From Candidatus Poribacteria bacterium WGA-3G (lineage in GTDB: Bacteria; Poribacteria; WGA-4E; WGA-3G), in assembly GCA_000406005.1 (NCBI GenBank), contig ASZN01000007.1, forward strand, positions 937-64,936: a stretch of DNA of 64,000 nt, given 5' to 3'. Positions 1 through 53,854 of this stretch are shown here, in pieces. Both the position numbers and the translations under genes were made by a program. The number at the start of each line of letters is the position of its first letter. The stretch's first letter is position 1. The notes below the pieces were generated by a model. The model had not been told where the DNA came from. It did no database searches and was given only the letters and a program-made list of their open reading frames with translations.

Positions 1-2817
1 CTACAAAACCTCTTTTTTGCAACGTTGAACACAGAGATAGACAAACGGACGTTTAGCAAGGGTGGCAATTCTAATCACCGCAATTTCTCACAGTATCGCT
101 ACGAGAAGCAGATGCGCGCGCCTGATAAACTATTAGAATTTTTTGACAAAACGCCATTCATCAACGGTGGCTTGTTCGACTGTCTGGATAGCTTCAAGGC
201 AACAAAATTCGGGGGCTACCGAATAGACTGCTTTTCTGATAAACAGTACCATAAGCTATCCATCCCGAACCACCTCTTTTTTGACGCACAGCACGGATTG
301 ATCCCTTTACTTGAACACTACAAATTCACCGTTGAAGAGAACACGCCGGTAGATCAGGAGGTTGCACTGGACCCCGAGTTGCTCGGCAGAGTGTTTGAGA
401 ATCTACTCGCCGCTATCAACCCGGAAACGGGAGAAACGGCGCGCAAGATGACAGGCTCCTATTACACCCCACGCGCTATCGTAGACTATATGGTGGAGGA
501 GGCGTTGGTTGCTGCGTTATCCCAAAAGTGTCAACCGACTGATGATAATTCAGAACTTTGGGATGAACGATTGCGATACCTGTTTGACTATGCACAAATG
601 TTTGACGATGCTCACGAATGGTTTGACAACCGCGAAACGGACGCGATTGTGAAAACAATTTCTGAACTCAAGATATTGGACCCAGCTGTCGGTTCCGGAG
701 CGTTTCCGATGGGCATACTCCACAAGTTGACGTTAGCACTCCGCCGACTTGACCCTGATAACAACCGATGGGAAACATTACAAAAGGAACTTTCAGGAAA
801 ACGTGCTGCAGCGGCATTTAACACTCAAGACCAACAGGAACGCGACGCTGAACTCACCGAAATCAGCGAAACTTTTGAACGATACCGAGATTCAGACTTC
901 GGACGGAAGTTGTATCTGATACAAAATAGCATCTTCGGCGTGGATATCCAACCGATTGCGTGCCAAATCGCCAAACTCCGCTTTTTCATATCACTTGCCA
1001 TTGAGCAGGAACCGGACAGAGACGCGGAGAACTTCGGCATCAAACCCTTGCCGAATTTGGAGACACGTTTTGTCGCAGCGGATACACTGATAGGCATAGA
1101 TTTATCCGAAACAAGGGGATTGTTCCAAGATGATACCGTACAGCAATTGCTAAAAGAAATTGACGGAATTCGTGAAAAGTTTTTTCTGGCAAACAACCGA
1201 ACACAAAAACGTGAACTTGAAGAGCAAGAAGAAAATTGCCGCAAACAATTGGAGGAAGAATTGGAGCGGCAGCGAATAGAATGGATAGGGAACCGACAAC
1301 GAGAAATAGATCAAAAAGTAAACCAACTTCCCACCGCTGAACTACGTGACAAGTTGCGAGAGAAGGAACAAAAAACGTTTGAAACGCGTAAGAAAGCATT
1401 TGATTCCGAATTTGAAAATGCTCGCAAAATCGTTCGCTGGAAACCCTACGACCAGAACGCGAAGACAGATTGGTTTGATCCAGAACGGATGTTTGGCATC
1501 AACGACGGGGTTGATGTAGTAATTGGAAATCCGCCTTATGTCCAATTGCAAAAGGAAAATGGGAGACTTGGGAAACTTTATCAAAACGCAGGTTTTGAAA
1601 CCTTTGCCCGTACAGGTGATATTTACTGTTTGTTCTATGAAAAAGCGAATCAACTTTTAAAAAATAACGGACATGCCTGTTTGATTACTTCCAATAAATG
1701 GATGCGCGCTGGTTATGGTAAAAAGTTGAGGGATTATTTTGTAACGCTTACCCAACCGATTCAACTGCTGGATATGGGACCGGATGTGTTTGATGCTACT
1801 GTTGACACCAACATTTTGCTTTTCCAAAAGATTGTATCCGATGTCCCCGCTGCCTTCGTAGGCGTGTCTCTCGGAGCAGACTTTGACAGACATACCGGCA
1901 ATATTGCCCGATATCTGATTAACAATGGCTCGACGATGGAGGTGCCCGCTAAAGGGGAACCGTGGGCGATCCTTTCGTCTGCTGAACTTAACTTGAAACG
2001 CAAAATAGAGGATGCCGGTAAACCGCTTAAAGATTGGAATATAAACATCTATCGTGGAATTGTAACAGGTCGTAACGAGGCATTTATCATAGACGAATTC
2101 AAGAGAGAAGAACTTATAGATCAAGACCCAAAGTCAACAGAAATCATCAAACCACTTCTGCGAGGAAAAGACATTAAACGCTACCGTGCCCAATGGGCAG
2201 GATTGTATTTGATAGGCACTTTTCCTGTGCTGAATTTGGATATCAACGACTATCCTGCAGTCAAAAATTATCTCATAGAATTTGGTAAAGATCGCTTGGA
2301 ACAATCGGGAAAAACACTTACCAATGGAACTAAATCTCGGAAGAAAAGTAAAAATAAATGGTTTGAAACACAAGATCAAATTGCTTACTACGCCGAATTC
2401 AATAATGAAAAGATCGTTTATCCGGAAACAACACATTCCGCAAATTTTTTCTATGACAAAAACCAATTTTATTTAGACAAAACCTGTTTTATGATTACAG
2501 GGAGCGATCTAAAAATCTTGGTGGGATTGCTCAGTTCTACATTGATGACCTTTGCTTATAAACGGTACTGTAGTGGGACTGTGCTGGGCGTAAAAGGGTA
2601 TCAGTATAACAAACACGCTTTAGAGAAACTTCCTGTCGCCAAAATTTCCGCCTCACAACAGCAATCTTTTATCACCTTAGTTGATCAGATTCTTGATGCT
2701 AAGAAAGCCGATCTCAACGCAGACACTTCCTCCCTTGAAAATGAGATTGACCAACTGGTCTATGAATTGTATAATTTAACGGAAGATGAGATTGCGATTG
2801 TGGAGGGGAATGTCTGA
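1..2817 (+). CDS. Eco57I/PglX-like N6-adenine DNA methyltransferase (type IIG RM or BREX-type), 5' partial
   Basis: Frame is open from nt 1, with no stop before the TTG at 25. Motifs seen: YYTPRAIVDYMV, motif I ILDPAVGSGAFP, motif IV VVIGNPPYV, and a TaqI-like C-terminal specificity region (YRGIVTGRNEAFII). A charged coiled-coil-like insert sits between motifs I and IV. Confidence 0.8.
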   Translation, partial: LQNLFFATLNTEIDKRTFSKGGNSNHRNFSQYRYEKQMRAPDKLLEFFDKTPFINGGLFDCLDSFKATKFGGYRIDCFSDKQYHKLSIPNHLFFDAQHGLIPLLEHYKFTVEENTPVDQEVALDPELLGRVFENLLAAINPETGETARKMTGSYYTPRAIVDYMVEEALVAALSQKCQPTDDNSELWDERLRYLFDYAQMFDDAHEWFDNRETDAIVKTISELKILDPAVGSGAFPMGILHKLTLALRRLDPDNNRWETLQKELSGKRAAAAFNTQDQQERDAELTEISETFERYRDSDFGRKLYLIQNSIFGVDIQPIACQIAKLRFFISLAIEQEPDRDAENFGIKPLPNLETRFVAADTLIGIDLSETRGLFQDDTVQQLLKEIDGIREKFFLANNRTQKRELEEQEENCRKQLEEELERQRIEWIGNRQREIDQKVNQLPTAELRDKLREKEQKTFETRKKAFDSEFENARKIVRWKPYDQNAKTDWFDPERMFGINDGVDVVIGNPPYVQLQKENGRLGKLYQNAGFETFARTGDIYCLFYEKANQLLKNNGHACLITSNKWMRAGYGKKLRDYFVTLTQPIQLLDMGPDVFDATVDTNILLFQKIVSDVPAAFVGVSLGADFDRHTGNIARYLINNGSTMEVPAKGEPWAILSSAELNLKRKIEDAGKPLKDWNINIYRGIVTGRNEAFIIDEFKREELIDQDPKSTEIIKPLLRGKDIKRYRAQWAGLYLIGTFPVLNLDINDYPAVKNYLIEFGKDRLEQSGKTLTNGTKSRKKSKNKWFETQDQIAYYAEFNNEKIVYPETTHSANFFYDKNQFYLDKTCFMITGSDLKILVGLLSSTLMTFAYKRYCSGTVLGVKGYQYNKHALEKLPVAKISASQQQSFITLVDQILDAKKADLNADTSSLENEIDQLVYELYNLTEDEIAIVEGNV

Positions 2818-3030: not shown

Positions 3031-3402
3031 ATGTCAAATCAATCTAACACGTCGAACGATAAACCACGGACAGTTCAGGACATCATTCGCGAGATAGAGC
3101 AGAAATCGGCTGGCGGTGGTTATATCTATCGCGGTGAACGTAAAGGCAATCCAAAAGTTACCTCAAAACTCTATCGTGATTTTGAGATTGAAACTGGAAA
3201 TTTTGATATAGAACGTGTCCAAAAAGAGATGTTGGCAGGTGCGAAAAAACATACAGGGCACCTACCTCATGACTCTCGCGTGGATGTCATGGCACCACCA
3301 AACGTGATAGCGGCGTTTACAGGGGAAACAGAGGAAGCAATAGATTTTGAAATTCTCACCGAAATCCAACACTACGGTGGTAAAACGAAGCTGCACTGCT
3401 AA
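3031..3402 (+). pseudogene. FRG-domain protein, 3'-truncated
   Basis: YIYRGE (the F/YRG motif) and EIQHYGGKT resemble the FRG-domain QHyGlpT box. The ORF stops immediately afterwards, exactly where repeat copy R1a begins (about 3390). Confidence 0.5.
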
Positions 3403-3616
3403 CACCCTCGCAAGCATAGCAGTCCAACAAAAAACTGTCCGCTTAGCGGATTACCTGATGCTACAGGTTTTCAATCCGAGAACCCGCGATTCAGATAATA
3501 AGAAAACGCCAACCCCTAACCCTGCCAATTAGAAAGTTCCGACTAAAACCGTTGATAACCGACACAAGTTGTGGTATACTTTTCTTAACTATTTATAGGA
3601 AGAGGTGAATACCATG
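3390..3616. repeat. Repeat family R1, copy a (coding remnant ..LTPSQA*, hairpin, GATTCAGA box, promoter, RBS)
   Basis: Aligns by eye with 4289-4455 and 7569-7835. Shared blocks include CTAACACCCTCGCAAGCATAGCAG, AAAACTGTCCGCTTAGCGGATTACCTGATG, GATTCAGATAATAAGAAAACGCCAACC and AAAACCGTTGATAACCGAC.CAAGTTGTGGTATACT. Confidence 0.75.
3552..3580 (+). promoter_or_regulatory. sigma70-type promoter TTGATA-17-TATACT with extended -10 TG
   Basis: TTGATA at 3552-3557, 17-nt spacer, TGgTATACT ending at 3580. It lies about 30 nt upstream of the DUF433 start. Confidence 0.6.
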
Positions 3617-3907: not shown

Positions 3908-4172
3908 TTCCACGCATGTCAAAACGATAGGGTTAAATACGGCGGCGGATACCGAGTTATGGGATTACGCTCGTGATAACGACTATCTCATCATTTCAAA
4001 GGATACAGACTTTAGGAATAGGAGCGTTATTCACGGTTATCCGCCAAAAGTGATTTGGGTCAAGATAGGGAATTGTGCCACAAGCACTGTCGAATACAAT
4101 TTGAGAAAGCATTTCGCTGATATTAAAGAATTTGCGAGGAACGCAAATGCGGGCTTATTTATCCTGCGGTAA
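3840..4172 (+). CDS. PIN-like (DUF5615 / Mut7-C type) toxin-like protein
   Basis: MKLLFDQNLS...ELWDYARDNDYLIISKDTDFRN fits the acidic-residue pattern of DUF5615 partners of DUF433. The internal ATG at 3840 is preferred to the ORF-track start at 3792. Confidence 0.6.
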   Translation: MKLLFDQNLSAQLVTLLADLFPDSTHVKTIGLNTAADTELWDYARDNDYLIISKDTDFRNRSVIHGYPPKVIWVKIGNCATSTVEYNLRKHFADIKEFARNANAGLFILR

Positions 4173-4288: not shown

Positions 4289-4455
4289 AAGAACATAAGT
4301 TTAAACTACCGGAAGACTTCGCCGCACGACTAACACCCTCGCAAGCATAGCAGCCTAACAAAAACTGTTCTCTTAGCGGATTACCTGATGTTACAGGTTT
4401 TCAATCCGCGAAATCTGCGTCATCCGTGATAATCCGCGATTCAGATAGTAAAGAA
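4289..4455. repeat. Repeat family R1, copy b (lacks the promoter half)
   Basis: AAACTACCGGAAGACTTCGCCGCACGACTAACACCCTCGCAAGCATAGCAGCCTAACAAAAACTGT...AATCCGCGATTCAGATAG aligns with copies a and c. Confidence 0.7.
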
Positions 4456-4677
4456 ACTGTCATTTAAAAAATAAACCCTGAACACACAAACCCACCTCCC
4501 TTCTGAACACGCAACCCGCGTATCAACTTTTACCTTGAAAATGAAATACGCCTCTGGTATACTCATGCCAAACTTTGGACAATTTTCAGTCTGTTGCTTG
4601 AAAGCGAGTAAAACCCAATGTATTCCATAGAAACGCCGCATTGCTTCCACAGAGGTTTCCGTGTATGCTTTCAAGAC

Positions 4678-4867: not shown

Positions 4868-6250
4868 ATGACAGAACGCCTACATGAAATGCGAGACCCG
4901 ATTCACGGGTTTATCAAACTTTCCAAAAAAGAGAAGAAACTGATTGACACCCAAGTGTTTCAGCGGCTTCGTCGAATTCGGCAACTGGCACTGACATCTT
5001 TGGTGTATCCGGGGGCTGTGCATACCCGATTTGACCATTCTATCGGTGTGATGCACGTTGCGGGCCGAATTTGCCAGAGGCTTCAGGAATTAAATCCATC
5101 AAAAATATGCGATGAAGACATAGATCGGGTTCGGCTTGCCGCATTGCTTCATGATGTCGGGCACGGCCCCTTTAGTCATGTTTCCGAGCATCTTTTGAAA
5201 AAGTACGCACCAGCAGATGCCGATACAGGACAGGTTCTCGAAAAAATACACGAGAAGATCACAGTAGATATTATCCGGAGCGATCCACAAATCAAAAACA
5301 TTCTAAAAAATGATTGCGAGTTCGTGATTGACATGATTCAAGGGAAACCGACGCGGGACTGGCAGCGTGACATCGTTTCCAGTGAATTAGACGCGGATAA
5401 AATGGACTATCTTTTACGCGATTCGTATTTTGCCGGTGTCAAATATGGTGAGTACGATCTGGAAAAACTGATTGAATCTTGCCGTATTGCGGACCGTCGA
5501 GAAACCCCTCTCGCAATTGGTAGCAAAGGAATTTACGCTCTTGAACAACTCCTATTAGCGAGGTATCACATGACACAGCAAGTCTATTGGCACCGAGTAA
5601 GTCTCATTTCCAATGAGATGATTGTTCGCGGTATTACCCTTGCAATTGATGGGCGTAACACAAAAATGGGCAAACTTTATAAATACCCTAAAAAAAACAA
5701 GAGAACCTCCGATGAGGATTACGAAAAAAAGAAAAAAGATTTCGTTCAAAACTACCTAAACTATCATGATGAAAAGGTGATTGACCTTTTGAGGAATTGC
5801 AAGCAAGAGAAAGCCCGAGAAATTTTCAATCAGATTTATAATCGGGAACTTTACAAAATGATTGCCGAGATTCGATTCAAGGACGAAAGGGATGAAATGG
5901 TTCGGACTGGTCTCCGAGGAGTGATAGCGGATCCAGATCGGAAACGCCAATGTGAAGAGAACATTGCGGCACATATAGACATTGATCCTGATTATGTGAT
6001 TGTCAATAAACCGCCAATCCGGAATCTGAATTACGTCAGTCAGACCGAGACCCCGAATCTGGAAGCGATTATGGTTTTCGACGAAAAGCAAGATTTACTT
6101 ATGTCTCTACCAGCGTACGCAGGTGAACTATTTTTTGTCAGGCACTCCGCTGACACCTCTGCTTTAGAAACTATCCAAGTTTATGCCCCACATAAAAATG
6201 ATTCAAAAAAAGAGAAAAGCGAAATCCAAAACATTTTGCGTTCCTCATGA
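4868..6250 (+). CDS. HD-domain phosphohydrolase, SAMHD1/EF1143-like (COG1078, putative dNTP triphosphohydrolase)
   Basis: RFDHSIGV, LLHDVGHGPFSH and DADKMDYLLRDSYFAGV form the H..HD..D metal-binding signature of this family. Confidence 0.8.
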   Translation: MTERLHEMRDPIHGFIKLSKKEKKLIDTQVFQRLRRIRQLALTSLVYPGAVHTRFDHSIGVMHVAGRICQRLQELNPSKICDEDIDRVRLAALLHDVGHGPFSHVSEHLLKKYAPADADTGQVLEKIHEKITVDIIRSDPQIKNILKNDCEFVIDMIQGKPTRDWQRDIVSSELDADKMDYLLRDSYFAGVKYGEYDLEKLIESCRIADRRETPLAIGSKGIYALEQLLLARYHMTQQVYWHRVSLISNEMIVRGITLAIDGRNTKMGKLYKYPKKNKRTSDEDYEKKKKDFVQNYLNYHDEKVIDLLRNCKQEKAREIFNQIYNRELYKMIAEIRFKDERDEMVRTGLRGVIADPDRKRQCEENIAAHIDIDPDYVIVNKPPIRNLNYVSQTETPNLEAIMVFDEKQDLLMSLPAYAGELFFVRHSADTSALETIQVYAPHKNDSKKEKSEIQNILRSS

Positions 6251-6261
6251 AAGGAGATTAT

Positions 6262-6831
6262 ATGAACATTGTTGACATTCTTCTACTTGTCATCAAAAGT
6301 GAACCTGGGGAGGAGTTAAGAGGGAGAACCCTCCTTCAAAAGAAAATCTATTTTCTGAGCGTCTTGCTCAAAGAAAATTTCGGATTCTCCGCTCACTATT
6401 ATGGGCCTTATAGTAGTTTCGTGGCGGAACATTTAGATGGTTTGGTGAACTATGGTGTCATCAAGGAATTCACAGAGTCTTTTACTGCCACTTCAGTTGA
6501 GCAAAACGCTTTCGGTGAAATTCGGAGGCACACCTATTCTCTAACCGCTGATGCTGAAGAGATGTGGGACGCAACTCAGCAAAAACTTGAGTTTCAAGAA
6601 TGGAATGAGGCACTTCAAGCCATCAACGAACAAAAGATTTCCAATGACTTTAACAGGCTTTCCATCGCGGCAAAGGTTCATTACATTGTTAGTTGGGAAG
6701 GGGAAAGCACAGTAGAAGAAGTTAAACAGGTTGCCGAGGAATATGGCTGGGACCTGGAGGAAGATGATATCGAAAACATCCTTTTCTTTTTAGAAGCCCT
6801 GAGTCTTGTACCCTATACTCCGCACTTCTAA
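6262..6831 (+). CDS. Panacea (DUF4065/SocA)-like domain protein
   Basis: LLQKKIYFLSVLL...FSAHYYGPYSSFVAEHLDGLVNYGVI resembles the KLqKLlYf...yGPv core of the Panacea domain. AGGAG lies 5 nt upstream of the ATG at 6262. An alternative ATG at 6247 overlaps the HD stop as ATGA. Confidence 0.5.
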   Translation: MNIVDILLLVIKSEPGEELRGRTLLQKKIYFLSVLLKENFGFSAHYYGPYSSFVAEHLDGLVNYGVIKEFTESFTATSVEQNAFGEIRRHTYSLTADAEEMWDATQQKLEFQEWNEALQAINEQKISNDFNRLSIAAKVHYIVSWEGESTVEEVKQVAEEYGWDLEEDDIENILFFLEALSLVPYTPHF

Positions 6832-7072
6832 TTTCGTTTTTTAGTATTTATTTCCTGAACCCTTGTGGTTCCAACATTCAGCAAACAATGTCCAGTGGAT
6901 CAGAGAAAAAGATATATGCGAAATGAACGCCTAATTCGCATCTCCCAATGTCCTTATCCTGTTCGGATCCTTGTGTGACGTGGGTTCGTCTAAAAATATC
7001 AAAACGTGTCAAAACAAGTGCGGAGTGTGGGTTGTACCAACCGATAAATCTGATGACATTCCATTCTAAAAA

Positions 7073-7568: not shown

Positions 7569-7835
7569 AGAAACATGAGATTAAACTTACCGGAAGACAT
7601 CGCCGCAATGCTAACGCCGCCGCAGGCATAGCAGTAAAGCAAAAACTGTCCGCTTAGCAGATAACTCGATGTTCCAGAATGTCAATCCGTGTTATCTGTG
7701 AAACCTGCGATTCAGATAATAAGAAAACGCCAACCTCTCACCCACCAATTAGAAATTTCATACTAAAACCGTTGATAACCGACGCAAGTTGTGGTATACT
7801 TTCTTAACTACTTGGAGGAAAAGGTGGATACCATG
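7569..7835. repeat. Repeat family R1, copy c (full length, including promoter and RBS)
   Basis: Collinear with 3390-3616 up to and including the first codons (ATACCATGAA). Confidence 0.75.
7772..7800 (+). promoter_or_regulatory. promoter TTGATA-17-TATACT (duplicate of 3552-3580)
   Basis: Same hexamers and spacer length. The spacer differs from the 3552 copy at one position. Confidence 0.6.
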
Positions 7836-22194: not shown

Positions 22195-22340
22195 AAATTT
22201 TATACACTGGATTCCTAAGGTTTAGCTGGCATCTGTTCACCAAATATGTTATGATTAACCTCAAAGAATCCACATCATTCGCGATTCAAACGATCATGAG
22301 GCTTCAGCGGAAAAAAAGTTATCGCTATGGAGAAAAGTTA

Positions 22341-24248
22341 ATGAGCAAACCGTTAAAAGTCTTCATTACCTACGCCCACAAAAATGCGGAAGCAAAGGAC
22401 AAATTGATAACCCACCTTGCTGTCCTGAAGCAAAACGGATTAATTGATGTCTGGCATGACAACGAAATTCTACCGGGAGACAAGTGGCGGGAGGCAATTT
22501 TTAACAATCTTGCCGATTCAGATATTCTGCTCTACCTTACTTGTCCTTACAGTCTTGCTTCTGAAAACTGTAATAAGGAGTTGACTGCTGCGTTACGTCC
22601 AAATATAAGAATAATTCCGATTATCCTTGAACACTGCGATTGGCAAAATCATCAACTCAGCGATTTTCAAGCACTTCCTGAAAAAGGCAAGCCAATCTAC
22701 GATATTAGCGAATGGAACCCTGAGAACAAAGGGTGGATGAGTGTGGTTGAGAGACTCCGAAAAGTGATAGAAAGAATGCAGTCCCAGGCGGATTCATCAT
22801 CTGCTACGTTAGAGAAGGAATTGCGTGCTGAGTTGGCATTCCAACAAGGCAACATTTTTATGATGTTCGGACAACTGGATATGGCAATAGGAGCATACTC
22901 ACATGTAATTGAAATTAATCCGCGCGATGTAGATGCCTACATCAATCGTGGAGCTGCTTATCAAGACAAAAACAACTTTGATTTTGCTATCCAAGATTTC
23001 ACCACTGCTATACAACTAAAACCTGATTATGCAATTGTCTATTACAATTTCGGTGTTATCTATGGTAAAAAAGGCGAGGTTGACAAAGCCATTGAAAACT
23101 ACAATAAGACAATAAAGCTCAATCCTAATTTTGCAGTGGCTTATAGTAATCGTGGCAACGCTTACGCAAATAAAGGTGAAGCAGAGAATGCCATGAAAGA
23201 CTATAATAAAGCGATTAAACTCAATCCATACCTTGCCGAGGTTTATTATAATCGAGGCATTGCTAATGAAGAGAATGGCAAGATTGAACTTGCTGTAAAG
23301 GACTATACCACAGCAATACAACTTAAACATAATTATGCCGCAGCGTATTGCAATCGTGGTGTTGCTTACGGAAAAATAAACAAGAATGACCTTGCTATTA
23401 CCGACTATAGTATGGCGATACAACTTGAACCTGACAAGGCAAAAACATATAATAATCGAGGGAACGCTTACTACAGAAAAGGCGAGATTGATAAAGCCAT
23501 TGAAGACTATAACGAAGCAATAAGCAAGGACCCAGAGTTTACCGATGCTTATAATAGTCGTGGTGTTATTTTTAGTATCAAAGGTGAAGTTGATAGAGCC
23601 ATCAAAGATTATAATAAAGCGATACAGATCAACCCCGATTATGCAAAAGCATATTGCAATCGTGGAAACGCTTATAGTGAAAAAGGCTACCATAACCGTG
23701 TTATTGAAGACTATAGCAGAGCAATTGAGTTAAATCCTAATTTCGCCGAGGCGTATTGCAATCGAGGTCACACTTATGTCTATAAAGGTGAAATTGACAA
23801 AGCCATTGAAGACTATAATACGACAATAAAACTGAGACTAAGTGATCATAAAGCATATAATGGCCGTGGTAATGCTTACCGCTGCAAAGGTGAAATTGAC
23901 AAAGCCATTGAAGACTATAACGCAGCGATAAAATTGAACTCTGATTTTAGCGAAGCCTACAGCAATCGCGGCATCACTCTCAGCATCAAAGGTGAACATG
24001 ACCTTGCTATCCAAGACTTTAGCAAAGTGATACAACTACAACCACAGTCTGCTCACGCCTATTACAATCGAGGCGCGACATGGTTATTTCTAAGAGAATG
24101 GGAGAAAGCTATGGCTGACTTGACTATTGCCCGAGATAGAGGGGTAGATATCACCACTAACTTTCGTAAGACAAGCATTGCCGACTTTGAACGGGCAATC
24201 GGTGTAAAATTACCTTCATTTATCGCTGTAATGCTTACACAACAGTAG
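22341..24248 (+). CDS. TIR-domain protein fused to a long TPR array
   Basis: KVFITYAHKN...WHDNEILPGDKWREAI...DILLYLTCPYSLASENCNKELTAAL is a TIR_2-type domain with a candidate catalytic Glu. More than 10 TPR units of the AY.NRG.AY..KGE.DKAI.DYN.AI.L.P type follow. GGAGA RBS precedes the ATG at 22341. Confidence 0.8.
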   Translation: MSKPLKVFITYAHKNAEAKDKLITHLAVLKQNGLIDVWHDNEILPGDKWREAIFNNLADSDILLYLTCPYSLASENCNKELTAALRPNIRIIPIILEHCDWQNHQLSDFQALPEKGKPIYDISEWNPENKGWMSVVERLRKVIERMQSQADSSSATLEKELRAELAFQQGNIFMMFGQLDMAIGAYSHVIEINPRDVDAYINRGAAYQDKNNFDFAIQDFTTAIQLKPDYAIVYYNFGVIYGKKGEVDKAIENYNKTIKLNPNFAVAYSNRGNAYANKGEAENAMKDYNKAIKLNPYLAEVYYNRGIANEENGKIELAVKDYTTAIQLKHNYAAAYCNRGVAYGKINKNDLAITDYSMAIQLEPDKAKTYNNRGNAYYRKGEIDKAIEDYNEAISKDPEFTDAYNSRGVIFSIKGEVDRAIKDYNKAIQINPDYAKAYCNRGNAYSEKGYHNRVIEDYSRAIELNPNFAEAYCNRGHTYVYKGEIDKAIEDYNTTIKLRLSDHKAYNGRGNAYRCKGEIDKAIEDYNAAIKLNSDFSEAYSNRGITLSIKGEHDLAIQDFSKVIQLQPQSAHAYYNRGATWLFLREWEKAMADLTIARDRGVDITTNFRKTSIADFERAIGVKLPSFIAVMLTQQ

Positions 24249-25221: not shown

Positions 25222-25246
25222 GCAAAGCGCACAGATTGACCTATTA

Positions 25247-25527
25247 GTCTATCAACATTGAAATGAAAGGTAAACCCGGTTCGTAGTCGTGCGATTCTGC
25301 GGTGTACTCACCCAAATGCGAAGTGCATTATCGCACGTCGGAACGGGCAATGAATGGTTTCCCTACTACGAACCACCCATCACTTTAGATGTGACAGACT
25401 ACTGTTCTGTCAACATTGAAATGATAGGTAAACCCGGTTCGTAGTCGTGCGATTTATCGCACGTCAAGAACGGGCAATGAATTGCCCTACTACGAACCAT
25501 CCATTTGTTTAGATGTGACAGACTACT
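25247..25527. repeat. two tandem copies (157 and 124 bp) of a highly structured MITE-like unit
   Basis: Each unit has an outer stem CTGTCAACAT/ATGTGACAG, a 10-bp stem GGTTCGTAGT/ACTACGAACC and an inner hairpin CGTGCGAT..ATCGCACG. Copy 1 carries a 32-nt insertion in that hairpin loop. Confidence 0.75.
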
Positions 25528-42872: not shown

Positions 42873-43871
42873 CTATAACCGTAGAAGTGTGCTGCCCCAT
42901 GTTAAACCAGCACCAAAAGTTACAAACAGCAACAGATCCCCCGGTTTCGCACGTCCCTCACGGATCGCCTCATCTAAAGCGATGATGATTGTCGCTGCGG
43001 AGGTGTTCCCATATCTATCAACGTTAATATAGACCTTCTCACGCGGCACGCCGAGCCTATCGCCGACCGCTTCAATGATCCGCAAATTCGCTTGATGTGG
43101 GATCAAAAGATCTATCTCCTCAACGCTGACATCCGCTTCACTTAAAACGCGCTGAGCCGCTTCCGGCATAAGCCGTACACCGAGTTTGAAGACCTCTCTG
43201 CCATTCATCTTAAGCTTGTCAAGTTTTTCGTCAATGGCTATTTCGGTAATCGGCATCCTGGATCCACCAGCCGGGACGCCAAGCAAATCAATGTCAGCAT
43301 AGTCACCATCGGAGCCGATATAAGACGCAAGGATCCCTTTCGGTTCATCTGTCGCTTGGACAACCGCAGCCCCCGCACCATCTCCAAAGAGGACACATGT
43401 ACTTCGATCGTTCCAGTCAATGATATTATTAAAAACCTCACCACCGACAACGAGAATCGTATTATAGCGTCCAGATTTAATCATTCCATCGGCTAAATCC
43501 AATCCGTAAAGGAAACCGGCACACGCGGCAGACAAATCCATCGCAGCAGCGTTTTTCGCACCGATGCCTTTCTGGACGTAACACGCCGTTGACGGAAAAA
43601 ACGTATCAGGGGTAACGGTAGCAACAAGAATCAATTCAATATCAAGCGGATCAATATTCGCGTTCTTTATCGCCCATCGTGCAGCGTTTACACACAGATC
43701 GGAGGTGGCGACATCGTCATCAGCGATACGTCGCTCAGCGATCCCCGTGCGTTGAAGAATCCATTCGTCACTTGTATCCACCATTTTCTCAAGGTCATAG
43801 TTGGTGACAATCCGTTCAGGAAGGTAAGAACCCGTTCCTGTGATAGTTGCATGTCGAAGTTGCGTCATCAA
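42873..43871 (-). CDS. fabH: 3-oxoacyl-ACP synthase III
   Basis: Cys in LSAACAGFLYGL, plus HQANLRII and GNTSAAT. Confidence 0.9.
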   Translation of the reverse strand: MMTQLRHATITGTGSYLPERIVTNYDLEKMVDTSDEWILQRTGIAERRIADDDVATSDLCVNAARWAIKNANIDPLDIELILVATVTPDTFFPSTACYVQKGIGAKNAAAMDLSAACAGFLYGLDLADGMIKSGRYNTILVVGGEVFNNIIDWNDRSTCVLFGDGAGAAVVQATDEPKGILASYIGSDGDYADIDLLGVPAGGSRMPITEIAIDEKLDKLKMNGREVFKLGVRLMPEAAQRVLSEADVSVEEIDLLIPHQANLRIIEAVGDRLGVPREKVYINVDRYGNTSAATIIIALDEAIREGRAKPGDLLLFVTFGAGLTWGSTLLRL

Positions 43872-44115
43872 ATTCTTCAGTGTGGAAACCTCTGTCTTTA
43901 GGCAGAGGAGGAAACACTGATCCTTTTAAGTTAGTGACAGGTTTTCTCTACCGATGCACCTGTCAAGCATCGCTATGCTTTTAATCCGCTGCATAGAAGC
44001 GGCGTGTAGAAAGTGGTTTAACTTGTAGAGTGAACCTTTGGCATAGGAAACCTCGCACAAGCCCCCATGCTTTAGCTGGGGGTCACTGACTAGTTCTCTC
44101 TTGAAGTCTCAGGCG

Positions 44116-48206: not shown

Positions 48207-49793
48207 ATGACACTCAGACAGACATTTCAGAAACCTATACGGGTACTTATGATTCTATCAGCACTCATCGTCGTCACCGGACTCGTCATCGGTTGGGATA
48301 CAGATGAACTGACAATGCAAACCGCAATCGGACAGACGAAGGACACACTTCAAACATCCGAAGATTTTCAGTATCTCGAACGCGCAAACCGAGCATTTAT
48401 TAACTTGGTGAAACAGACACGTCCAGCAGTTGTACAAATTACAACACAGACGAAACGAAATCAAAGCAGAGCACCGGAACGTCTTCTCCCAGATGATATT
48501 TACAAATTCTTCTTCGGCCCCGAACCTGATCCAAGACGTGAACAGGAAAGGGACCCTGATCCCATCCAAGGCCTCGGTTCCGGTGTAATCGTCCGTGAGG
48601 ACGGTTATATTTTGACAAACAATCATGTCATTGACGGTGTTGATCATATTACTGTTAAACTCGCAAACGGGCGCGAATATCCAGCAAAATTAGTCGGGAG
48701 CGATCCGGGACAATTTAACCGCAACGGTGGCGGAAGCGATCTCGCACTCCTTAAGATTGATGCCGATAACCTACCTGCCCTGCAATTCGGTGATTCGGAC
48801 GCACTCGAGGTCGGTGAATGGGTTATCGCAATCGGATCGCCGCTCGGTTTGACGCAGACTGTGACGCGTGGAATCGTTAGTGCAAAAGGTAGAGATCGCA
48901 ACAGCAGCTTGGTTGCGTTCGGTAACTTTATTCAAACAGACGCACCCATTAACCGCGGGAACAGCGGCGGCGCACTGATTAACATCCGCGGCGAATTGGT
49001 CGGTATTAATACCTTAATTGCTAGCGGTGGTTCCACCATGGGAAATATCGGCATCGGTTTCGCTATTCCCAGCAACTTGGCACAACAACTTATGCCCTCC
49101 CTGATTGAAGACGGACGCGTCGTACGCGGGTGGCTCGGAATCTACATGGATCCCGTGGATCACGATTTAGCAGATAAACTCCAGTTTGAGGAACCGAGAG
49201 GCGTTGTTGTTGAGTCTGTTGTCCAAAATAGTCCTGCTGAAAAAGCTGGCATTCAGCCTCGAGATATTATCCTCGAATTTGATGGTGAAGTCGTTCGGGA
49301 CATTAATCATCTAAGGTATACCGTCGCCGCCAAGAGGGTCGGGAAACCTATTAAAATAAAAGTACTCCGAAAAGGCACCCAAGAAAAGCAACTCACTGTC
49401 AAATTAGCAGAGCGCACCGCAGAAGCCGTTGCCAGAGCCGAAGGAAGCACCATTCAAGAGGACCAAACGGAATCATTCGCTGGTCTCCGCGTACGAAATC
49501 TGACACCTTCAATCGCTGATCGTTTTGGCTACGCTTCAAAGGAAACCGGCGTGATTGTCGCAGAAGTCGCAGATGATAGCGATGCCGCAAGACAAGGCAT
49601 CAGACCCGGGGCCCTTATTCAAGAAATCGAATGGGAACCAGTTGACAACTTGGACACCTATATCGAAATTGTGACGGAACTGAAAAAACAGAATAAGGAA
49701 AAAGTTCTCCTTTATGTCAAATCCGTTGATGGACTTCGTGGTGGATACGTTAGTGGATACCTTACAGTCAGAGTTGCTACATCAGACCGGTAA
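48207..49793 (+). CDS. htrA: HtrA/DegP-family serine protease with two PDZ domains
   Basis: GSGVIVREDGYILTNNHV (His), DLALLKI (Asp), GNSGGAL (Ser), and two PDZ-like segments. N-terminal TM/signal. Confidence 0.85.
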   Translation: MTLRQTFQKPIRVLMILSALIVVTGLVIGWDTDELTMQTAIGQTKDTLQTSEDFQYLERANRAFINLVKQTRPAVVQITTQTKRNQSRAPERLLPDDIYKFFFGPEPDPRREQERDPDPIQGLGSGVIVREDGYILTNNHVIDGVDHITVKLANGREYPAKLVGSDPGQFNRNGGGSDLALLKIDADNLPALQFGDSDALEVGEWVIAIGSPLGLTQTVTRGIVSAKGRDRNSSLVAFGNFIQTDAPINRGNSGGALINIRGELVGINTLIASGGSTMGNIGIGFAIPSNLAQQLMPSLIEDGRVVRGWLGIYMDPVDHDLADKLQFEEPRGVVVESVVQNSPAEKAGIQPRDIILEFDGEVVRDINHLRYTVAAKRVGKPIKIKVLRKGTQEKQLTVKLAERTAEAVARAEGSTIQEDQTESFAGLRVRNLTPSIADRFGYASKETGVIVAEVADDSDAARQGIRPGALIQEIEWEPVDNLDTYIEIVTELKKQNKEKVLLYVKSVDGLRGGYVSGYLTVRVATSDR

Positions 49794-49829
49794 ATACCGT
49801 CTTATCGTGCGGTTCACGGATTAATGCTT

Positions 49830-49881
49830 GACGGATAGTTGTTTCTGTGGTACACTGCACAGAAATAACTATCCGTCTTTT
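49830..49881 (+). terminator. intrinsic terminator of htrA
   Basis: About 20-bp stem GACGGATAGTTGTTTCTGTG / CACAGAAATAACTATCCGTC, followed by TTTT. Confidence 0.8.
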
Positions 49882-49910
49882 GTAGAATAGGCTGTTAGCC
49901 TGTTCAATCT
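49882..49910. repeat. solo copy of the A-type unit GTAGAATAGGCTGTTAGCCTGTTCAATCT
   Basis: Identical to the unit at 28376-28403. Confidence 0.8.
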
Positions 49911-50034
49911 TGTGCTTTTTCTACGAGTTCAACACCGATCAAAACTTGTAGAAAAATGGAAACATCCTTGGAAACACAATACGAAATGGGCAGAAACTGT
50001 CCAAACTATTGGAATAATATGAGGTCAGGTTTTG

Positions 50035-50112
50035 ATGAAAGCACAACGCGTTGTTTGGCCCAGCCGCGCCAAAGTTGAGGTCGAGACGTTTGAATTACCA
50101 CCTATCGGAGGT
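50035..50112 (+). pseudogene. N-terminal fragment of a Zn-dependent (MDR-family) dehydrogenase
   Basis: MKAQRVVWPSRAKVEVETFELPPIGG matches the usual MKA..........v.v.e...P.ig start. Homology stops at the IsrB element. Confidence 0.5.
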
Positions 50113-50315
50113 CAACTACCCAAGTCTAAAGACTAGGGCTTGTGAACATCCGTAGCCACACGGGGACCCACAAGTTAAACGGTTTTCTAGAGTAAAATAT
50201 CGAGTATCTCGTGGTGGCACACGCACAGACGGTATGGATGCTCCCCAAGTCTATACCCGCTCTGATACGTGATCTCGAAGGGGAAACATATAACCCGAAA
50301 GGGAACTTACGATGA
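50095..50315 (+). ncRNA. candidate omega-RNA (guide plus scaffold) of the IsrB element
   Basis: It occupies the position immediately 5' of the IsrB ORF, as in IscB/IsrB loci. Stems are CTTGTG/CACAAG, CCGT/ACGG, CGAG-TAT-CTCG and CCC-GAAA-GGG. A possible long-range pairing is CATCCGTAGCC with GGTATGGATG. Boundaries are approximate. Confidence 0.5.
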
Positions 50316-51360
50316 ACTTCGTTCCTGTGAAAAGTAAAGATGGCGAAAGGCTCATGCCGACAACACCCACGCGTGCAGGCATGATGATCAAATGTGGAGA
50401 CGCTACCCCTTATTGGGATCAGGGTGTATTCTGTATCCGACTTAACAGAGAACCCTCGAAACGATTCAAACAAGAGATTGTTGTCGGTGTAGACCCCGGT
50501 AGTAAGAAAGAAGGCTTTACCGTCAAATCCGAATCTCATACCTACTTGAATGTGCAAGCCAATGCTCATAGTGGCGTTAGTAAGAAAGTCGCCAAGCGTC
50601 GAGAGTTGCGTAGAAGCCGACGTTCCCGAAAGTGTCCGAACCGCAAGAACCGGACGAACCGTCTTGCGAACGAAGAGCGTATCCCCGCAGGCACGCGTGC
50701 GAGGTGGGATTGGAAACTTCGTATCCTTGATTGGCTGTCGAAACTGTATCCCGTCACATACGTCTGTGTTGAAGATATTAAGGCGCGAACAATAGAACGT
50801 GCGAAGAAATGGAATACCTCTTTTAGTCCACTTGAAGTCGGTAAGCAGTGGTTTTATACCGAAATCCGAAAACGGTGGGAGTTGCTAACCCTTCAAGGGT
50901 GGCAAACCAAAGAGATACGCGATAGGTTAGGTCTGAAGAAGTCGTCAGAGAAGATGTCAGAAACTTTTGACGCACATTGCGTGGATGCCTACTGCTTGGC
51001 GTATCACACGGTTGGCGGTTCGGGTGTCCCTGATAACACGGACTTACTGTGTGTTTCACCGATACCGATAAAGCGAAGAGAGCTGCATAGGCAACAAGAA
51101 GCGAAGGGTGGTAAACGCTCACGCGTGGGTGGCACTGTATTAGGTCCAGGTCTAATTAAAAACACATTGATTCGGCATGTCAAATACGGATTGACCCGAC
51201 TCGCTGGCGTTAACGCAAAAGGTGTGTTTTCAATATACAGCATGGAAAACAAACGATTAACCACAGGTGCGAAGCGGTCTGATTTCAGAGTGCTAACACG
51301 CCTCAACTTTTATTACAGGAGCGGGCATTCCTCCCAAGCATAAATACTTGGGGCTCCTGC
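50110..51360 (+). mobile_element. non-autonomous IS200/IS605-family (IsrB-only) element
   Basis: IsrB plus the upstream RNA region, flanked by the two dehydrogenase gene fragments. No TnpA is present. A hairpin CCCAAG..CTTGGG spans the stop codon (51333-51352). Ends are approximate. Confidence 0.55.
50312..51343 (+). CDS. IsrB (IscB-like RuvC nuclease lacking HNH), OMEGA-family RNA-guided nickase homologue
   Basis: PLMP domain (DGERLMPTTPTRAGMMIK), RuvC-I VVGVDPGSKKEGF, Arg-rich bridge helix KRRELRRSRRSRK, RuvC-II YVCVEDIK and RuvC-III FDAHCVDAYCLA. No HNH insert. 343 aa. Confidence 0.8.
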   Translation: MNFVPVKSKDGERLMPTTPTRAGMMIKCGDATPYWDQGVFCIRLNREPSKRFKQEIVVGVDPGSKKEGFTVKSESHTYLNVQANAHSGVSKKVAKRRELRRSRRSRKCPNRKNRTNRLANEERIPAGTRARWDWKLRILDWLSKLYPVTYVCVEDIKARTIERAKKWNTSFSPLEVGKQWFYTEIRKRWELLTLQGWQTKEIRDRLGLKKSSEKMSETFDAHCVDAYCLAYHTVGGSGVPDNTDLLCVSPIPIKRRELHRQQEAKGGKRSRVGGTVLGPGLIKNTLIRHVKYGLTRLAGVNAKGVFSIYSMENKRLTTGAKRSDFRVLTRLNFYYRSGHSSQA

Positions 51361-51361
51361 C

Positions 51362-51538
51362 CGAAGATTAGATGACAGCCGCTTACTGTTGACACTCATC
51401 GCTGAAAAACGATTCGACGTTGCACCGTTGATTAGCCATCGCATCCCTGGAGAAGAAGCACCGAAAGCATATCAACTCCTTATGGAATGGAATCCCGGTC
51501 TACTTGGTGTTGTTCTTCAGTGGAACAACGAGATGTAG
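51362..51538 (+). pseudogene. C-terminal fragment of the same Zn-dependent dehydrogenase family
   Basis: LLLTLIAEKRFDVAPLISHRIPGEEAPKAYQLLMEWNPGLLGVVLQW is the typical MDR C-terminus. Confidence 0.5.
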
Positions 51539-51564
51539 ATGCTTGTGAATCTGTCAAAAAGTTC

Positions 51565-51593
51565 TTGACTGTTTTGGAAACATTTTGTAAAAT
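51565..51593 (+). promoter_or_regulatory. promoter TTGACT-17-TAAAAT upstream of EF-G
   Basis: Exact 17-nt spacer with TG at the extended -10 position. Confidence 0.5.
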
Positions 51594-51700
51594 GCTGCGT
51601 AAGTCCTACAGGGGTAACGGCCAATGCCCGCTAATCTCCACAGGCGTGATTTCATATCATAAGAACTGTCCACTCTCTGGACAGTACGTTAGGAAAAAAT

Positions 51701-53854
51701 ATGGCACGCGAATATCCGATTGAAAACGTGCGCAACATCGGAATTGCAGCACACATAGATGCCGGCAAGACAACGACCACCGAACGAATCCTTTTCTACA
51801 CCGGCAAAAAACATAAAATCGGTGCCGTGGACGACGGCACGGCTGAGATGGATTGGATGGTACAGGAACGCGAACGCGGCGTGACGATCACCGCCGCCGC
51901 AACAACCTGCTTCTGGGATAAACACGCAATTCATCTCATCGATACACCCGGACACGTCGATTTCACAGTAGAAGTAGAACGTTCTTTACGGGTTTTGGAC
52001 GGTGTTGTCGCACTTTTCTGCGCCGTCGGCGGGGTCGAACCCCAATCAGAAACCGTCTGGCAACAAGCCGATCGCTACCAGGTACCACGGATCGTGTTTG
52101 TTAATAAAATGGATAGAGTCGGCGCGAACTACGAACGCGTCTTGGAGATGATGAAAGAACAGTTGGGCGCGAATCCGCTACCCCTCCAACTCCCCATCGG
52201 AGAAGGAACCGAATTTGAAGGCGTTATTGATCTGGTAACACAAAAGGCACTACGCTGGGACGCAGCAGACCAAGGACAAACCTATTTAGAGGCGGAAATC
52301 CCAACTGAATTCCAAGATGAAGTCGAAGCAGCACGAGAAAGCCTCTTTGAGACTGTCGCCGTTGAAGACGAGATACTACTTGAAAAATACTTGGGCGGCG
52401 AAGAAATCACACACGATGAATTAGTGACGGCTGTTCGCACAGCGACGCTAAACGGTGCTTTCGTACCAGTTCTGTGTGGAAGTTCTCTAAAAAATCAAGG
52501 GGTCCAACCGCTACTTGACGCAGTCATCAACTTTTTGCCATCACCCGTTGATGTGCCACCTATTGAAGGCGCAGCACCAGAACCGACCTCCGGCAGCAGA
52601 CGTTCCAAGCGCACAGGAGGTCCCACTGAAACAGATAAAGTGATACGTCCGGCAGACGACACGGCGCCTTTCTCAGCCTTAGCGTTCAAAGTGGCGAGCC
52701 ATCCAACCGTAGACAAACTCGTTTATTGTCGAATCTACTCTGGCACGCTCAGGCGTGGCGAGGCAGTCTACAACGTCCGTTCCCAGAAACGCGAGCGCGT
52801 CAATCGCATTCTACAAATGCACGCCAACAAAGAGGCGGTCTCCGATGCCGCTTATGCCGGCGACATCGTCGCACTCGTCGGGCTTAAAGATACCAAAACA
52901 GCGGATACACTGACAGACCCGAAAGAACCCATTCTGTTAGAATCTATCACTTTTCCCGAACCCGTTATCTCCATCGCTATTGAACCTGAACGCGCAAGCG
53001 ATGCTGACGCACTCGAAGAGACACTCGAAAAATTGATGGACGAAGACCCGACCTTCACCGTCGGAATTGACCAAGAAACCGGACAGCGAATTATCTCCGG
53101 AATGGGTGAACTTCATCTCGAAATCTTGACCGATAGAATGATCCGTGAGTTTGGCGTGAACGCCCGGGTGAGTAAACTCCAAGTATCGTATCGCGAAACC
53201 ATAAGTACCACGGCAGAAGCGCGTGGAAAGCACATCCATAAAACCGATGAAGAAGGTATCTACGGTGATGTACAACTCACCGTGGAACCCTTAGAACGCG
53301 GCGCAGGGTTTCAGTTTGAAGATAACTCCGACGAAACACAGATTCCGAGGCAATACATCCCGTTTATTGAGAAAGCCCTCGAGGGAGCCATGATAACAGG
53401 CCCCCGCATCGGATACCCCATGCAAGATGTGAAGGCAACGCTCACCGGCGGTTCCTATCACCCAACCGATTCCTCGGAGGTCGCCTTCGAGGCAGCAGCC
53501 GTCCACGCCTTCGAGAACGCAGTCAGAAAGGCGAACCCCTTAATCTTAGAGCCGATTATGCGGATACACATCACCGTTCCTGATGAACATGTCGGTAAAG
53601 TTATCGGTGATCTGAATTCCCGGCGCGCACATATGAATGAAAGCGTGGCACAAGACACATCCGAAACAGGAAATACATCGCAATTGCGGCGAGACATCAT
53701 CAACGCTTTTATACCGTTATCAGAAACATTTCAATATACGACACATCTCCGTTCGATGACGCAGGGACGGGGCGCCTTTACGTTGGAATTCTCACACTAC
53801 GAGAGAGTGCCAGAGTCACTTGCACCGGGTGCGAAACTTGCAGGCACGGTTTAA
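51701..53854 (+). CDS. fusA: elongation factor G (stand-alone copy, not in an rpsL-rpsG-fusA-tuf context)
   Basis: [23 protein letters not shown] and NKMDR, plus domains III-V. An approximately 30-aa Arg/Ser/Thr-rich insert ([23 protein letters not shown]) is present. Confidence 0.8.

Follow-up and report, generated by a model that had tools for sequence, protein, structure and literature searches.

IsrB proteins are akin to IscB, the ancestor of Cas9, but have no HNH domain. IsrB of Desulfovirgula thermocuniculi (DtIsrB; PDB 8DMB) has been described by Hirano et al. 2022 (PMC9581776). The target-adjacent motif (TAM) of DtIsrB is NTGA/TTGA, position 4 of the motif being read by residue Q326, and the guide-adaptor region of the DtIsrB RNA serves transposition (PMC9581776). 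The RNA family HEARO is now known as the omega-RNA of IscB, and in IscB elements the TAM abuts the transposon end opposite to the omega-RNA; the TAM of the Geobacillus stearothermophilus protein GstIscB, TTCAT, reads ATGAA in gene orientation (bioRxiv 10.1101/2023.03.14.532601). A locus of this kind is found in Candidatus Poribacteria bacterium WGA-3G, within a stretch of 64,000 nucleotides (contig ASZN01000007.1, positions 937 to 64,936 of the forward strand) hereafter called the window, to which coordinates refer unless otherwise stated. The whole mobile element is 1,261 bp long (50111-51371, plus strand), and includes an omega-RNA, the isrB gene, which is its sole gene, and an end hairpin. 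It is predicted, with a probability of about 0.88, to be a non-autonomous element of the IS200/IS605 superfamily and of the class called OMEGA (from obligate mobile element-guided activity), encoding IsrB and its omega-RNA, that is, a putative RuvC-only RNA-guided nickase.

The IsrB protein

The isrB open reading frame (ORF; 50312-51343, plus strand) encodes a protein of 343 amino acids featuring a PLMP-type domain, a split RuvC, a bridge helix, an HNH-linker and a C-terminal TAM-interacting domain. The original prediction, which relied on the bare sequence of the stretch, had called this protein an IsrB, and both sequence and fold comparisons agree. The best match among PDB sequences is the IsrB chain of 8DMB, either with the single sequence (E 6.9e-33) or with a family profile (E 3.3e-40). 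The alignment to 8DMB spans residues 3-292, whereas the match to IscB chains is restricted to the first ~110-170 residues. RRXRR (PF14239) is the sole Pfam match (residues 4-157, E 1e-28), and the NCBIfam IscB model covers the N-terminal half of the protein only, scoring 82 bits versus a cut-off of 175. The lack of an HNH domain had also been anticipated, and no HNH family was found in the ORF by searching Pfam and NCBIfam.

The three parts of the split RuvC are readily recognized. RuvC-I includes D61 in the motif VGVDPGS, RuvC-II includes E154 in CVEDIK, and RuvC-III includes H222 and D225 in FDAHCVDAY. E154 and H222 are spaced by 68 residues only, which leave space for a linker and none for an HNH domain; an HNH-linker is accordingly found in place of HNH. 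In both single-sequence and profile alignments D61, E154, H222 and D225 fall on the D/E/H/D residues of the DtIsrB RuvC, and they are invariant among 137 diverse IsrBs. The bridge helix is located at residues about 88-107. Its Arg-rich tract RRELRRSRRSRK (residues 96-107) lines up with the DtIsrB tract RRNLRRARRYRK in the sequence alignment, and residues 88-103 are helical in the AlphaFold2 model described below. The split RuvC and the Arg-rich bridge helix had both been foreseen, and are aligned with their counterparts in DtIsrB and IscB. The PLMP domain had been foreseen as well. The domain is indeed there, as indicated by the RRXRR match and by the alignment to DtIsrB, but the motif is spelled RLMP (residues 13-16). 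Residue 13 (50348-50350) is K or R in the close Poribacteria clade, while PLMP is found in 110/116 other IsrBs.

The fold was predicted with AlphaFold2, using as input an alignment of 137 sequences, which includes more distant RRXRR-only proteins, with identities down to ~40%. The model has a mean predicted local distance difference test (pLDDT) score of 84.3 and a predicted template modelling score of 0.82. An earlier model, obtained from 56 sequences 76-88% identical, was dropped (pLDDT 52). The PLMP region is folded into four strands and one helix (residues 4-44). In Foldseek searches the top match is 8dmb (E 5.7e-27), with template modelling (TM) scores of 0.78/0.81 (query/target) over 343 aligned columns and a root-mean-square deviation of 3.6. 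Full-length IscBs score lower (TM 0.63-0.73 on the query and 0.41-0.60 on the target). The protein does not cluster with RuvC proteins unrelated to OMEGA systems, the query-normalised TM of RuvC resolvases being <=0.32. The Foldseek alignment to 8dmb takes in the C-terminal beta domain, which is beyond the reach of sequence searches. This beta-rich TAM-interacting domain (residues about 285-337) is modelled as strands with pLDDT of about 87-92. Within it, R315 is conserved, and probably corresponds, on the basis of motif spacing, to R323 of DtIsrB. By the same token (spacing of the KRxxQ motif), T318 (51263-51265) is inferred to be the equivalent of Q326. T is the residue of this clade, while Q and R are found in 95/116 and 18/116 of the other IsrBs, respectively. 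Sequence and predicted fold are those of an IsrB of full length, whose active-site residues are intact.

The omega-RNA upstream of isrB

Comparison of related copies indicates that the ~200 nt preceding isrB form an RNA of the IsrB/IscB omega type, with several conserved helices and a pair of pseudoknots. The scaffold (50111-50335, plus strand) doubles as the transposon end on that side, RNA and element having their first base in common. The structure was derived from a MAFFT alignment of 65 distinct copies; RNAalifold provided part of it, and the rest was added by inspection. Pairs were counted on the unmodified MAFFT alignment, and the counts were compared to those obtained upon sliding the partners by 1-3 columns and to 500 shuffles. 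The consensus features 74 pairs in 13 helices, two pseudoknots among them. Cells are paired at 90.4% versus 31.6-46.2% in the slid controls, 31 pairs are changed on both sides versus 12-22, and the covariation score is 0.227 versus 0.03-0.055. The observed values are reached in none of the 500 shuffles.

Stem S1 (50111-50115/50175-50180) encloses the stem-loops SL1 (50119-50138) and SL2 (50139-50174, loop about 50154-50159). Stems S2 (50186-50192/50274-50278) and S3 (50199-50208/50264-50273) enclose SL4 (50210-50223) and SL5 (50231-50257). Pseudoknot PK1 results from the pairing of the SL2 and SL4 loops (50154-50159 with 50214-50219); at alignment columns 49-119 it is AU in 32 copies, GC in 30 and GU in 3, and is never broken. 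PK2 joins the SL5 loop to the linker (50242-50247 with 50279-50284), CCCC(A/U) pairing with the (U/A)GGGG found before SL7; columns 149-183 are UA in 28 copies, AU in 26 and broken in 11. SL7 (50294-50303), which reads CCC-GAAA-GGG, has a GAAA loop and contains the Shine-Dalgarno sequence, and a SL8-like hairpin (50309-50322) is found over the isrB AUG. Changes in the latter are mostly one-sided, of the wobble type (e.g. ACAAAC/GUUUGU versus ACGA/UCGU), one pair being changed on both sides. The position of this hairpin hints that translation is controlled by the folded omega-RNA. Stem S1 and, within S2, the lower part (columns 85-86 with 181-182) are near-invariant and exhibit no compensatory changes, so that covariation speaks neither for nor against them. 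A long-range pairing annotated in HEARO (model positions 73-77 with 192-196) was left out, as no consistent pairing or covariation was seen by eye in the 65-copy alignment. Hairpins, the GAAA stem and a pseudoknot had been proposed for this region from a single sequence. They rise above chance because of the covariation found in the 65 copies, and not by virtue of the single-sequence fold, which is no better than that of shuffled sequences.

The Rfam HEARO model (RF02033) aligns end to end with 50111-50324 (24.1 bits, E 0.036), and the match begins at the same first base, GUCAAC. HEARO also matches the same place in four of the seven relatives tested (23.7-40.5 bits, best E 6.6e-5). By these alignments the upstream RNA is related to HEARO, and falls outside the curated Rfam family. 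A family covariance model built on the 65-copy alignment scores 202 bits at 50111-50335, and according to the model alignment the window copy preserves every helix along with the two pseudoknots. In the set of 80 isrB loci described below, the model is found upstream of isrB in 78 at 170-266 bits (two of these are partial or cut at the 5' end); a weak partial remnant of 33 bits is found in one further locus. No match was obtained in three relatives lacking the element (L115, L116 and L117).

A few related loci are disrupted. In L066 the omega-RNA (2456-2683) and isrB (ORF at 4001) are split by an insert of ~1.3 kb encoding integrase-like sequence. L068 hosts a further, incomplete omega copy, located on the other strand (2268-2523, minus strand), and most or all of the omega-RNA is missing in L042 and L036.

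Boundaries and end hairpins

A genome scan, in which one genome per species was considered, yielded 344 confirmed isrB stretches, and the best 80 of the 344 were used for copy comparisons. In BLASTN comparisons of the region 49600-51800 to these 80 loci, homology starts at 50109-50119 (at 50168 in copies with more divergent 5' ends) and ends at 51369-51377. When 47 copies are aligned, their left flanks have nothing in common as far as the base preceding GTCAA(C/T) at 50111. The right junction fits the scheme ...CCCGAAGA-(0-6 nt)-G(A/G)TGA up to 51375, and is followed by unrelated sequences. In 79 copies the homology ends with G(A/G)TGA before flanks diverge, and RTGA is found at one end only, the other flank being variable. 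The search for further copies, advocated to define the ends of the element, thus places them at 50111 and 51371. The interval 50035-51538 originally assigned to the element is to be abandoned, since its limits are those of the remnants of the interrupted gene.

A subterminal imperfect hairpin, CGGGCA..CCCAAG-CATAAATA-CTTGGG..TGCCCG (51322-51363, plus strand), is found at the end opposite to the omega-RNA, its sequence overlapping the isrB stop and the codons just before it. Six variants of the outer 5-bp stem (GGGCA/TGCCC, GGTGT/ACACC, GGGTT/AACCC, GGACA/TGTCC, GGGCT/AGCCC, GGCAA/TTGCC) are found among copies, and the inner stem likewise changes compensatorily. SL1 and this hairpin are alike in having a C-rich/G-rich stem with a CTAAAG-like loop, and covariation is seen in each. 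Subterminal hairpins bound by the transposase TnpA at both ends are the arrangement expected of IS200/IS605 elements. The paired end hairpins, as deduced from the aligned copies, fit a transposon of the IS200/IS605 superfamily devoid of terminal inverted repeats.

The host gene, the predicted guide and the TAM

The element interrupts a gene for a Zn-dependent alcohol/threonine-type dehydrogenase. The 5' remnant (25 codons; 50035-50110, plus strand) is transcribed toward the element, and the 3' remnant (51372-51538, plus strand) includes the last ~55 codons. Joined to each other, the two form an open frame of 80 codons. The omega-RNA region had been said to start where homology to the dehydrogenase ends, and the homology stops exactly at 50110/50111. 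The predicted guide TGAATTACCACCTATCGGAG (50091-50110, plus strand) is host dehydrogenase sequence directly 5' of the element, and is unique in the window. Its length of 20 nt was assumed from DtIsrB, and its position was set according to Hirano 2022 and Meers 2023. The ATGA at 51372-51375 (plus strand), adjoining the opposite end, would be at the same time the TAM and the IS200/IS605 target tetranucleotide.

Searches with the joined dehydrogenase remnants retrieved N- or C-terminal fragments only. One of these is located on a 1.23-Mb European Nucleotide Archive contig (L115) syntenic with the window and lacking isrB. The two share genes for an AP-endonuclease-2 family protein, a DUF1232 protein, HtrA, the dehydrogenase, EF-G, a peptidase S58 and a DUF4416 protein, in the same order. 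isrB is also absent from L116 and L117. The window segments 50015-50110 and 51370-51543 align to L115 5979-6076 and 6833-7006, respectively. The left site in L115 reads CCTATCGGAG/ATGATGAAG (the slash marks the junction), with the guide-matching sequence directly followed by ATGA; the right site reads CTTGAAG/ATGACAGCC. Both host sites thus read AG/ATGA. As ATGA is present at both, the ATGA at 51372-51375 is host sequence, and not part of the element. The match to the guide followed by ATGA in a relative free of the element fits the guide-plus-TAM logic of IsrB and IscB. No duplicated target bases are seen upon comparison to the empty site, but the locus has also undergone a deletion (see below). 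When metagenomes were scanned for the empty site via HtrA orthologues, nothing came up except the same contig and relatives <=44% identical.

The RTGA flank is retained in the clade despite T318. The L115 dehydrogenase gene (6001-7007), of intact length, is split by an assembly frameshift into 68 + 265 aa, perhaps due to a long-read error or to pseudogenisation, and the gene is likewise fragmented in L116 and L117.

Copy number, selection and mobility

The best 80 of the 344 isrB stretches come almost all from metagenome-assembled genomes of Poribacteria, some of which contain 9-10 of the 80. Poribacteria are rich in this family, some genomes having 10 or more copies. Protein relatives number thousands, and the best 120 are 76-88% identical and ~342 aa long. 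An exhaustive search of 1.84 billion representatives identified 1,092 related clusters at 50% identity, whose full-length members mostly measure ~330-380 aa. In hundreds of such clusters the proteins are ~335-350 aa long, are RRXRR-only, and have the same short linker between RuvC-II and RuvC-III. isrB is under purifying selection. The median ratio of nonsynonymous to synonymous substitution rates (dN/dS) is 0.106 versus 77 copies, internal stops are found in 3/80 related copies, and the D/E/H/D residues are intact in this copy and retained in 81/81 copies. Multiple copies with differing flanks denote a family that was recently mobile. No match to phage genomes was found by BLASTN with the element, and a full-text literature search retrieved no paper in which IsrB and Poribacteria are mentioned together.

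No candidate TnpA was found in the 64-kb window, to which the search was confined, by monitoring small ORFs for the HUH (histidine-hydrophobic-histidine) motif and for Pfam matches. The only non-overlapped ORFs of at least 90 aa with a H-hydrophobic-H motif encode EF-G and the DUF4416 protein. The element has one gene, and was classed as non-autonomous, as originally proposed, since neither the element nor the window hosts a Y1 (HUH) TnpA. Most IscB and IsrB genes have no tnpA nearby (Meers et al., bioRxiv 10.1101/2023.03.14.532601).

A miniature ORF-less derivative of 222 bp, resembling palindrome-associated transposable elements (PATEs) and miniature inverted-repeat transposable elements, is found at 43869-44090 (minus strand), where the family covariance model scores 58.6 bits (E 3e-15). 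It retains the end with S1/SL1/SL2 as well as the hairpin of the other end, having lost the central omega scaffold and isrB. This copy lies between the genes for YceD and fabH, and adjoins an ATGA (43868-43865) whose ATG is likely the fabH start codon. It was seen only by the covariance model, and no second full copy was found by searching the window for repeats. Since the miniature copy lacks the central scaffold, the latter is not needed in cis for propagation.

A chimeric element next to a deletion

A simple insertion does not account for the locus, which has undergone a deletion. Between the two remnants the dehydrogenase gene lacks ~756 bp (L115 6077-6832), and both breakpoints read AG/ATGA. 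Compared to L115, the two flanks derive therefore from two different potential insertion sites. The element itself is composite. From 50111 to ~50500, a tract including the omega-RNA and the first ~60 codons, its identity to the L037/L052 subfamily is 89-99%, falling to only 51-78% beyond this point. Past ~50500 and up to the end, it shares 82-98% identity with L001/L004/L014, versus 54-72% in the first ~350 bp, values converging toward the crossover; over the last 75 bp the closest copy is L030. The crossover is located at about 50480-50540, in the conserved RuvC-I region. Judged from these identities, this copy arose by recombination between two subfamilies.

Chimera and deletion would be most simply explained by two insertions in the same orientation at the two AG/ATGA sites, followed by recombination. 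An older chimera and an unrelated deletion are a possible alternative. A wider and rather doubtful scenario is that two elements of different subfamilies, lying 756 bp apart, recombined perhaps through nicking by IsrB. Multi-copy OMEGA elements would in that case drive both host gene deletion and their own modular shuffling in Poribacteria. The clade also keeps the RTGA flank with a distinct putative TAM reader (T318 for Q/R).

Possible mode of action and alternative explanations

The way in which the element may work can be sketched by analogy with DtIsrB and GstIscB, from which the transcription, guide and nicking steps are inferred. Transcription would enter from outside, from the promoter of the host dehydrogenase; the dehydrogenase remnant and the HtrA gene lie upstream in the same orientation, and read-through from the remnant probably accounts for transcription of the omega-RNA. 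The ~20 nt at the 5' end of the RNA (50091-50110) would act as guide. IsrB would bind the scaffold, and SL7 and SL8, carrying the Shine-Dalgarno sequence and the AUG, may also damp isrB translation. Upon excision of the element by a Y1 transposase acting in trans, the rejoined donor site, made of the guide match followed by ATGA, would be recognized, and the non-target strand would be nicked ~8-11 nt upstream of the TAM. Recombination with a sister copy carrying the element would then restore it, favouring re-acquisition after excision.

Several observations weigh against an active guided nickase borne by a mobile element. Folded on its own, the upstream RNA is no more stable than expected by chance (minimum free energy z = -1.24; 22/200 shuffles fold equally well), and the HEARO score of 24.1 bits is much lower than the Rfam gathering score of 83, of which the scores in relatives also fall short. 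No convincing promoter was found upstream of the element, where promoter-like matches are at background level. T318 occupies the presumed position of Q326, so that TAM reading may differ in this clade. Current mobility is conjectural, no TnpA candidate having been found in the window, and the 756-bp deletion leaves the genome without an intact allele into which this guide could home.

Some of these data might denote a dead relic, in which the IsrB-omega module is recognizable but is no longer a guided nickase or mobile in this genome. The missing TnpA, the host target allele destroyed by the deletion and the lack of a clear promoter would all be accounted for, as would the internal stops in 3/80 related copies. 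This is nonetheless unlikely, given an ORF of full length with intact D/E/H/D residues and dN/dS of ~0.1 versus 77 copies, every omega helix and both pseudoknots being preserved in this very copy, an identical protein being encoded by the same contig from another assembly, and a multi-copy family with different flanks which was recently mobile. Much less probable is that the upstream 200 nt work solely as a DNA-level transposon end, i.e. as TnpA substrate, and/or as a 5' untranslated translational regulator, and provide no guide RNA. Compensatory changes are spread over ~210 nt and come with two long-range pseudoknots in the topology of IsrB omega-RNAs, while IS200/IS605 ends need ~40-80 nt, and the similarity to HEARO also speaks for an omega-RNA. 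It is true that SL1 is dispensable for nicking by DtIsrB and is thought to serve transposition (PMC9581776), that SL1 and SL2 are the part kept in the ORF-less miniature copy, and that SL7 and SL8 sequester the Shine-Dalgarno sequence and the AUG. What the miniature copy has lost is however exactly the central scaffold, which is hence dispensable for transposition. Least probable of all is that the protein is a degenerate IscB, recently deprived of HNH and external to the IsrB lineage. The N-terminal 120-160 residues do match IscB models, but both sequence and fold match DtIsrB from end to end, better than any IscB, and the same RRXRR-only build of ~335-350 aa with a short linker recurs in hundreds of 50%-identity clusters. 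A non-autonomous element encoding IsrB and its omega-RNA is the interpretation retained here.

Other repeats in the window

At least 8 tandem units of 102 bp (34 codons), 60-70% identical, are found at 22932-24073, in an ORF of 665 aa (22251-24248, plus strand) encoding a repeat protein-like product. Three intergenic repeats of 150-200 bp, 77-93% identical and including GCGGATTAC-like motifs, are located at 3390-3582, 4321-4472 and 7602-7802, and a 43-nt inverted match is found at 2813-2855. They may represent another small mobile or regulatory repeat. The intergenic region 25241-25527 hosts two pairs of direct repeats of 46-56 nt, 89-91% identical and 124-158 nt apart.

Comparison with known systems

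The organization of the element parallels that of the ISGst5-type IscB elements of Geobacillus stearothermophilus (bioRxiv 10.1101/2023.03.14.532601). These are similarly non-autonomous IS200/IS605 elements, in which the omega scaffold makes one transposon end and the guide lies outside, the upstream host gene is co-oriented, and the TAM is found at the opposite end; ORF-less miniatures (PATEs) are known there too. The effector of ISGst5-type elements is, in contrast, IscB, which cuts both strands, and their cognate TnpA is known, whereas the effector described here is IsrB, a predicted nickase, and no TnpA was identified in the window. With IscB and HEARO (RF02033; OgeuIscB, 7XHT/7UTN) the locus shares a homologous N-terminal PLMP/RuvC-I/bridge helix region and an RNA to which HEARO aligns end to end. 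It differs in lacking HNH, in HEARO scores of 24-40 bits versus the gathering score of 83, and in Foldseek TM values lower than those to IsrB.

Similarities to DtIsrB are more extensive. The two proteins are 28% identical, with TM of 0.78-0.81 over the full length, and feature in the same order PLMP, RuvC-I, bridge helix, REC-linker, RuvC-II, HNH-linker, RuvC-III, PLL/WED and TAM-interacting domains. In both cases a guide, here predicted, is found at the 5' end of an upstream RNA having two pseudoknots and a SL7 bearing the Shine-Dalgarno sequence, and the TAM is of the NTGA type (ATGA here, RTGA among copies). The Poribacteria RNA differs in having a scaffold of ~200-225 nt versus 262 nt and pseudoknots of the Hirano 'group A' (SL2-SL4, SL5-linker), DtIsrB belonging to group B. 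SL3 and SL6 are not evident, and a SL8-like hairpin is present over the AUG. The protein differs for RLMP in place of PLMP, and for T318 at the position equivalent to Q326.

Known OMEGA biology is unchanged by this element, which is a well-preserved but ordinary additional member of the IsrB family. The way in which elements of this sort recombine and decay is illustrated by its chimerism, by the neighbouring deletion and by the miniature copy. The combination of a compact protein of 343 aa, a 'group A' scaffold of ~200-225 nt and an unusual presumed TAM-reading residue could be of interest to those mining for small nickases. The locus provides a clean natural example of an IsrB OMEGA system in which predicted guide, scaffold, ORF, end hairpin and TAM have all been placed at base resolution.

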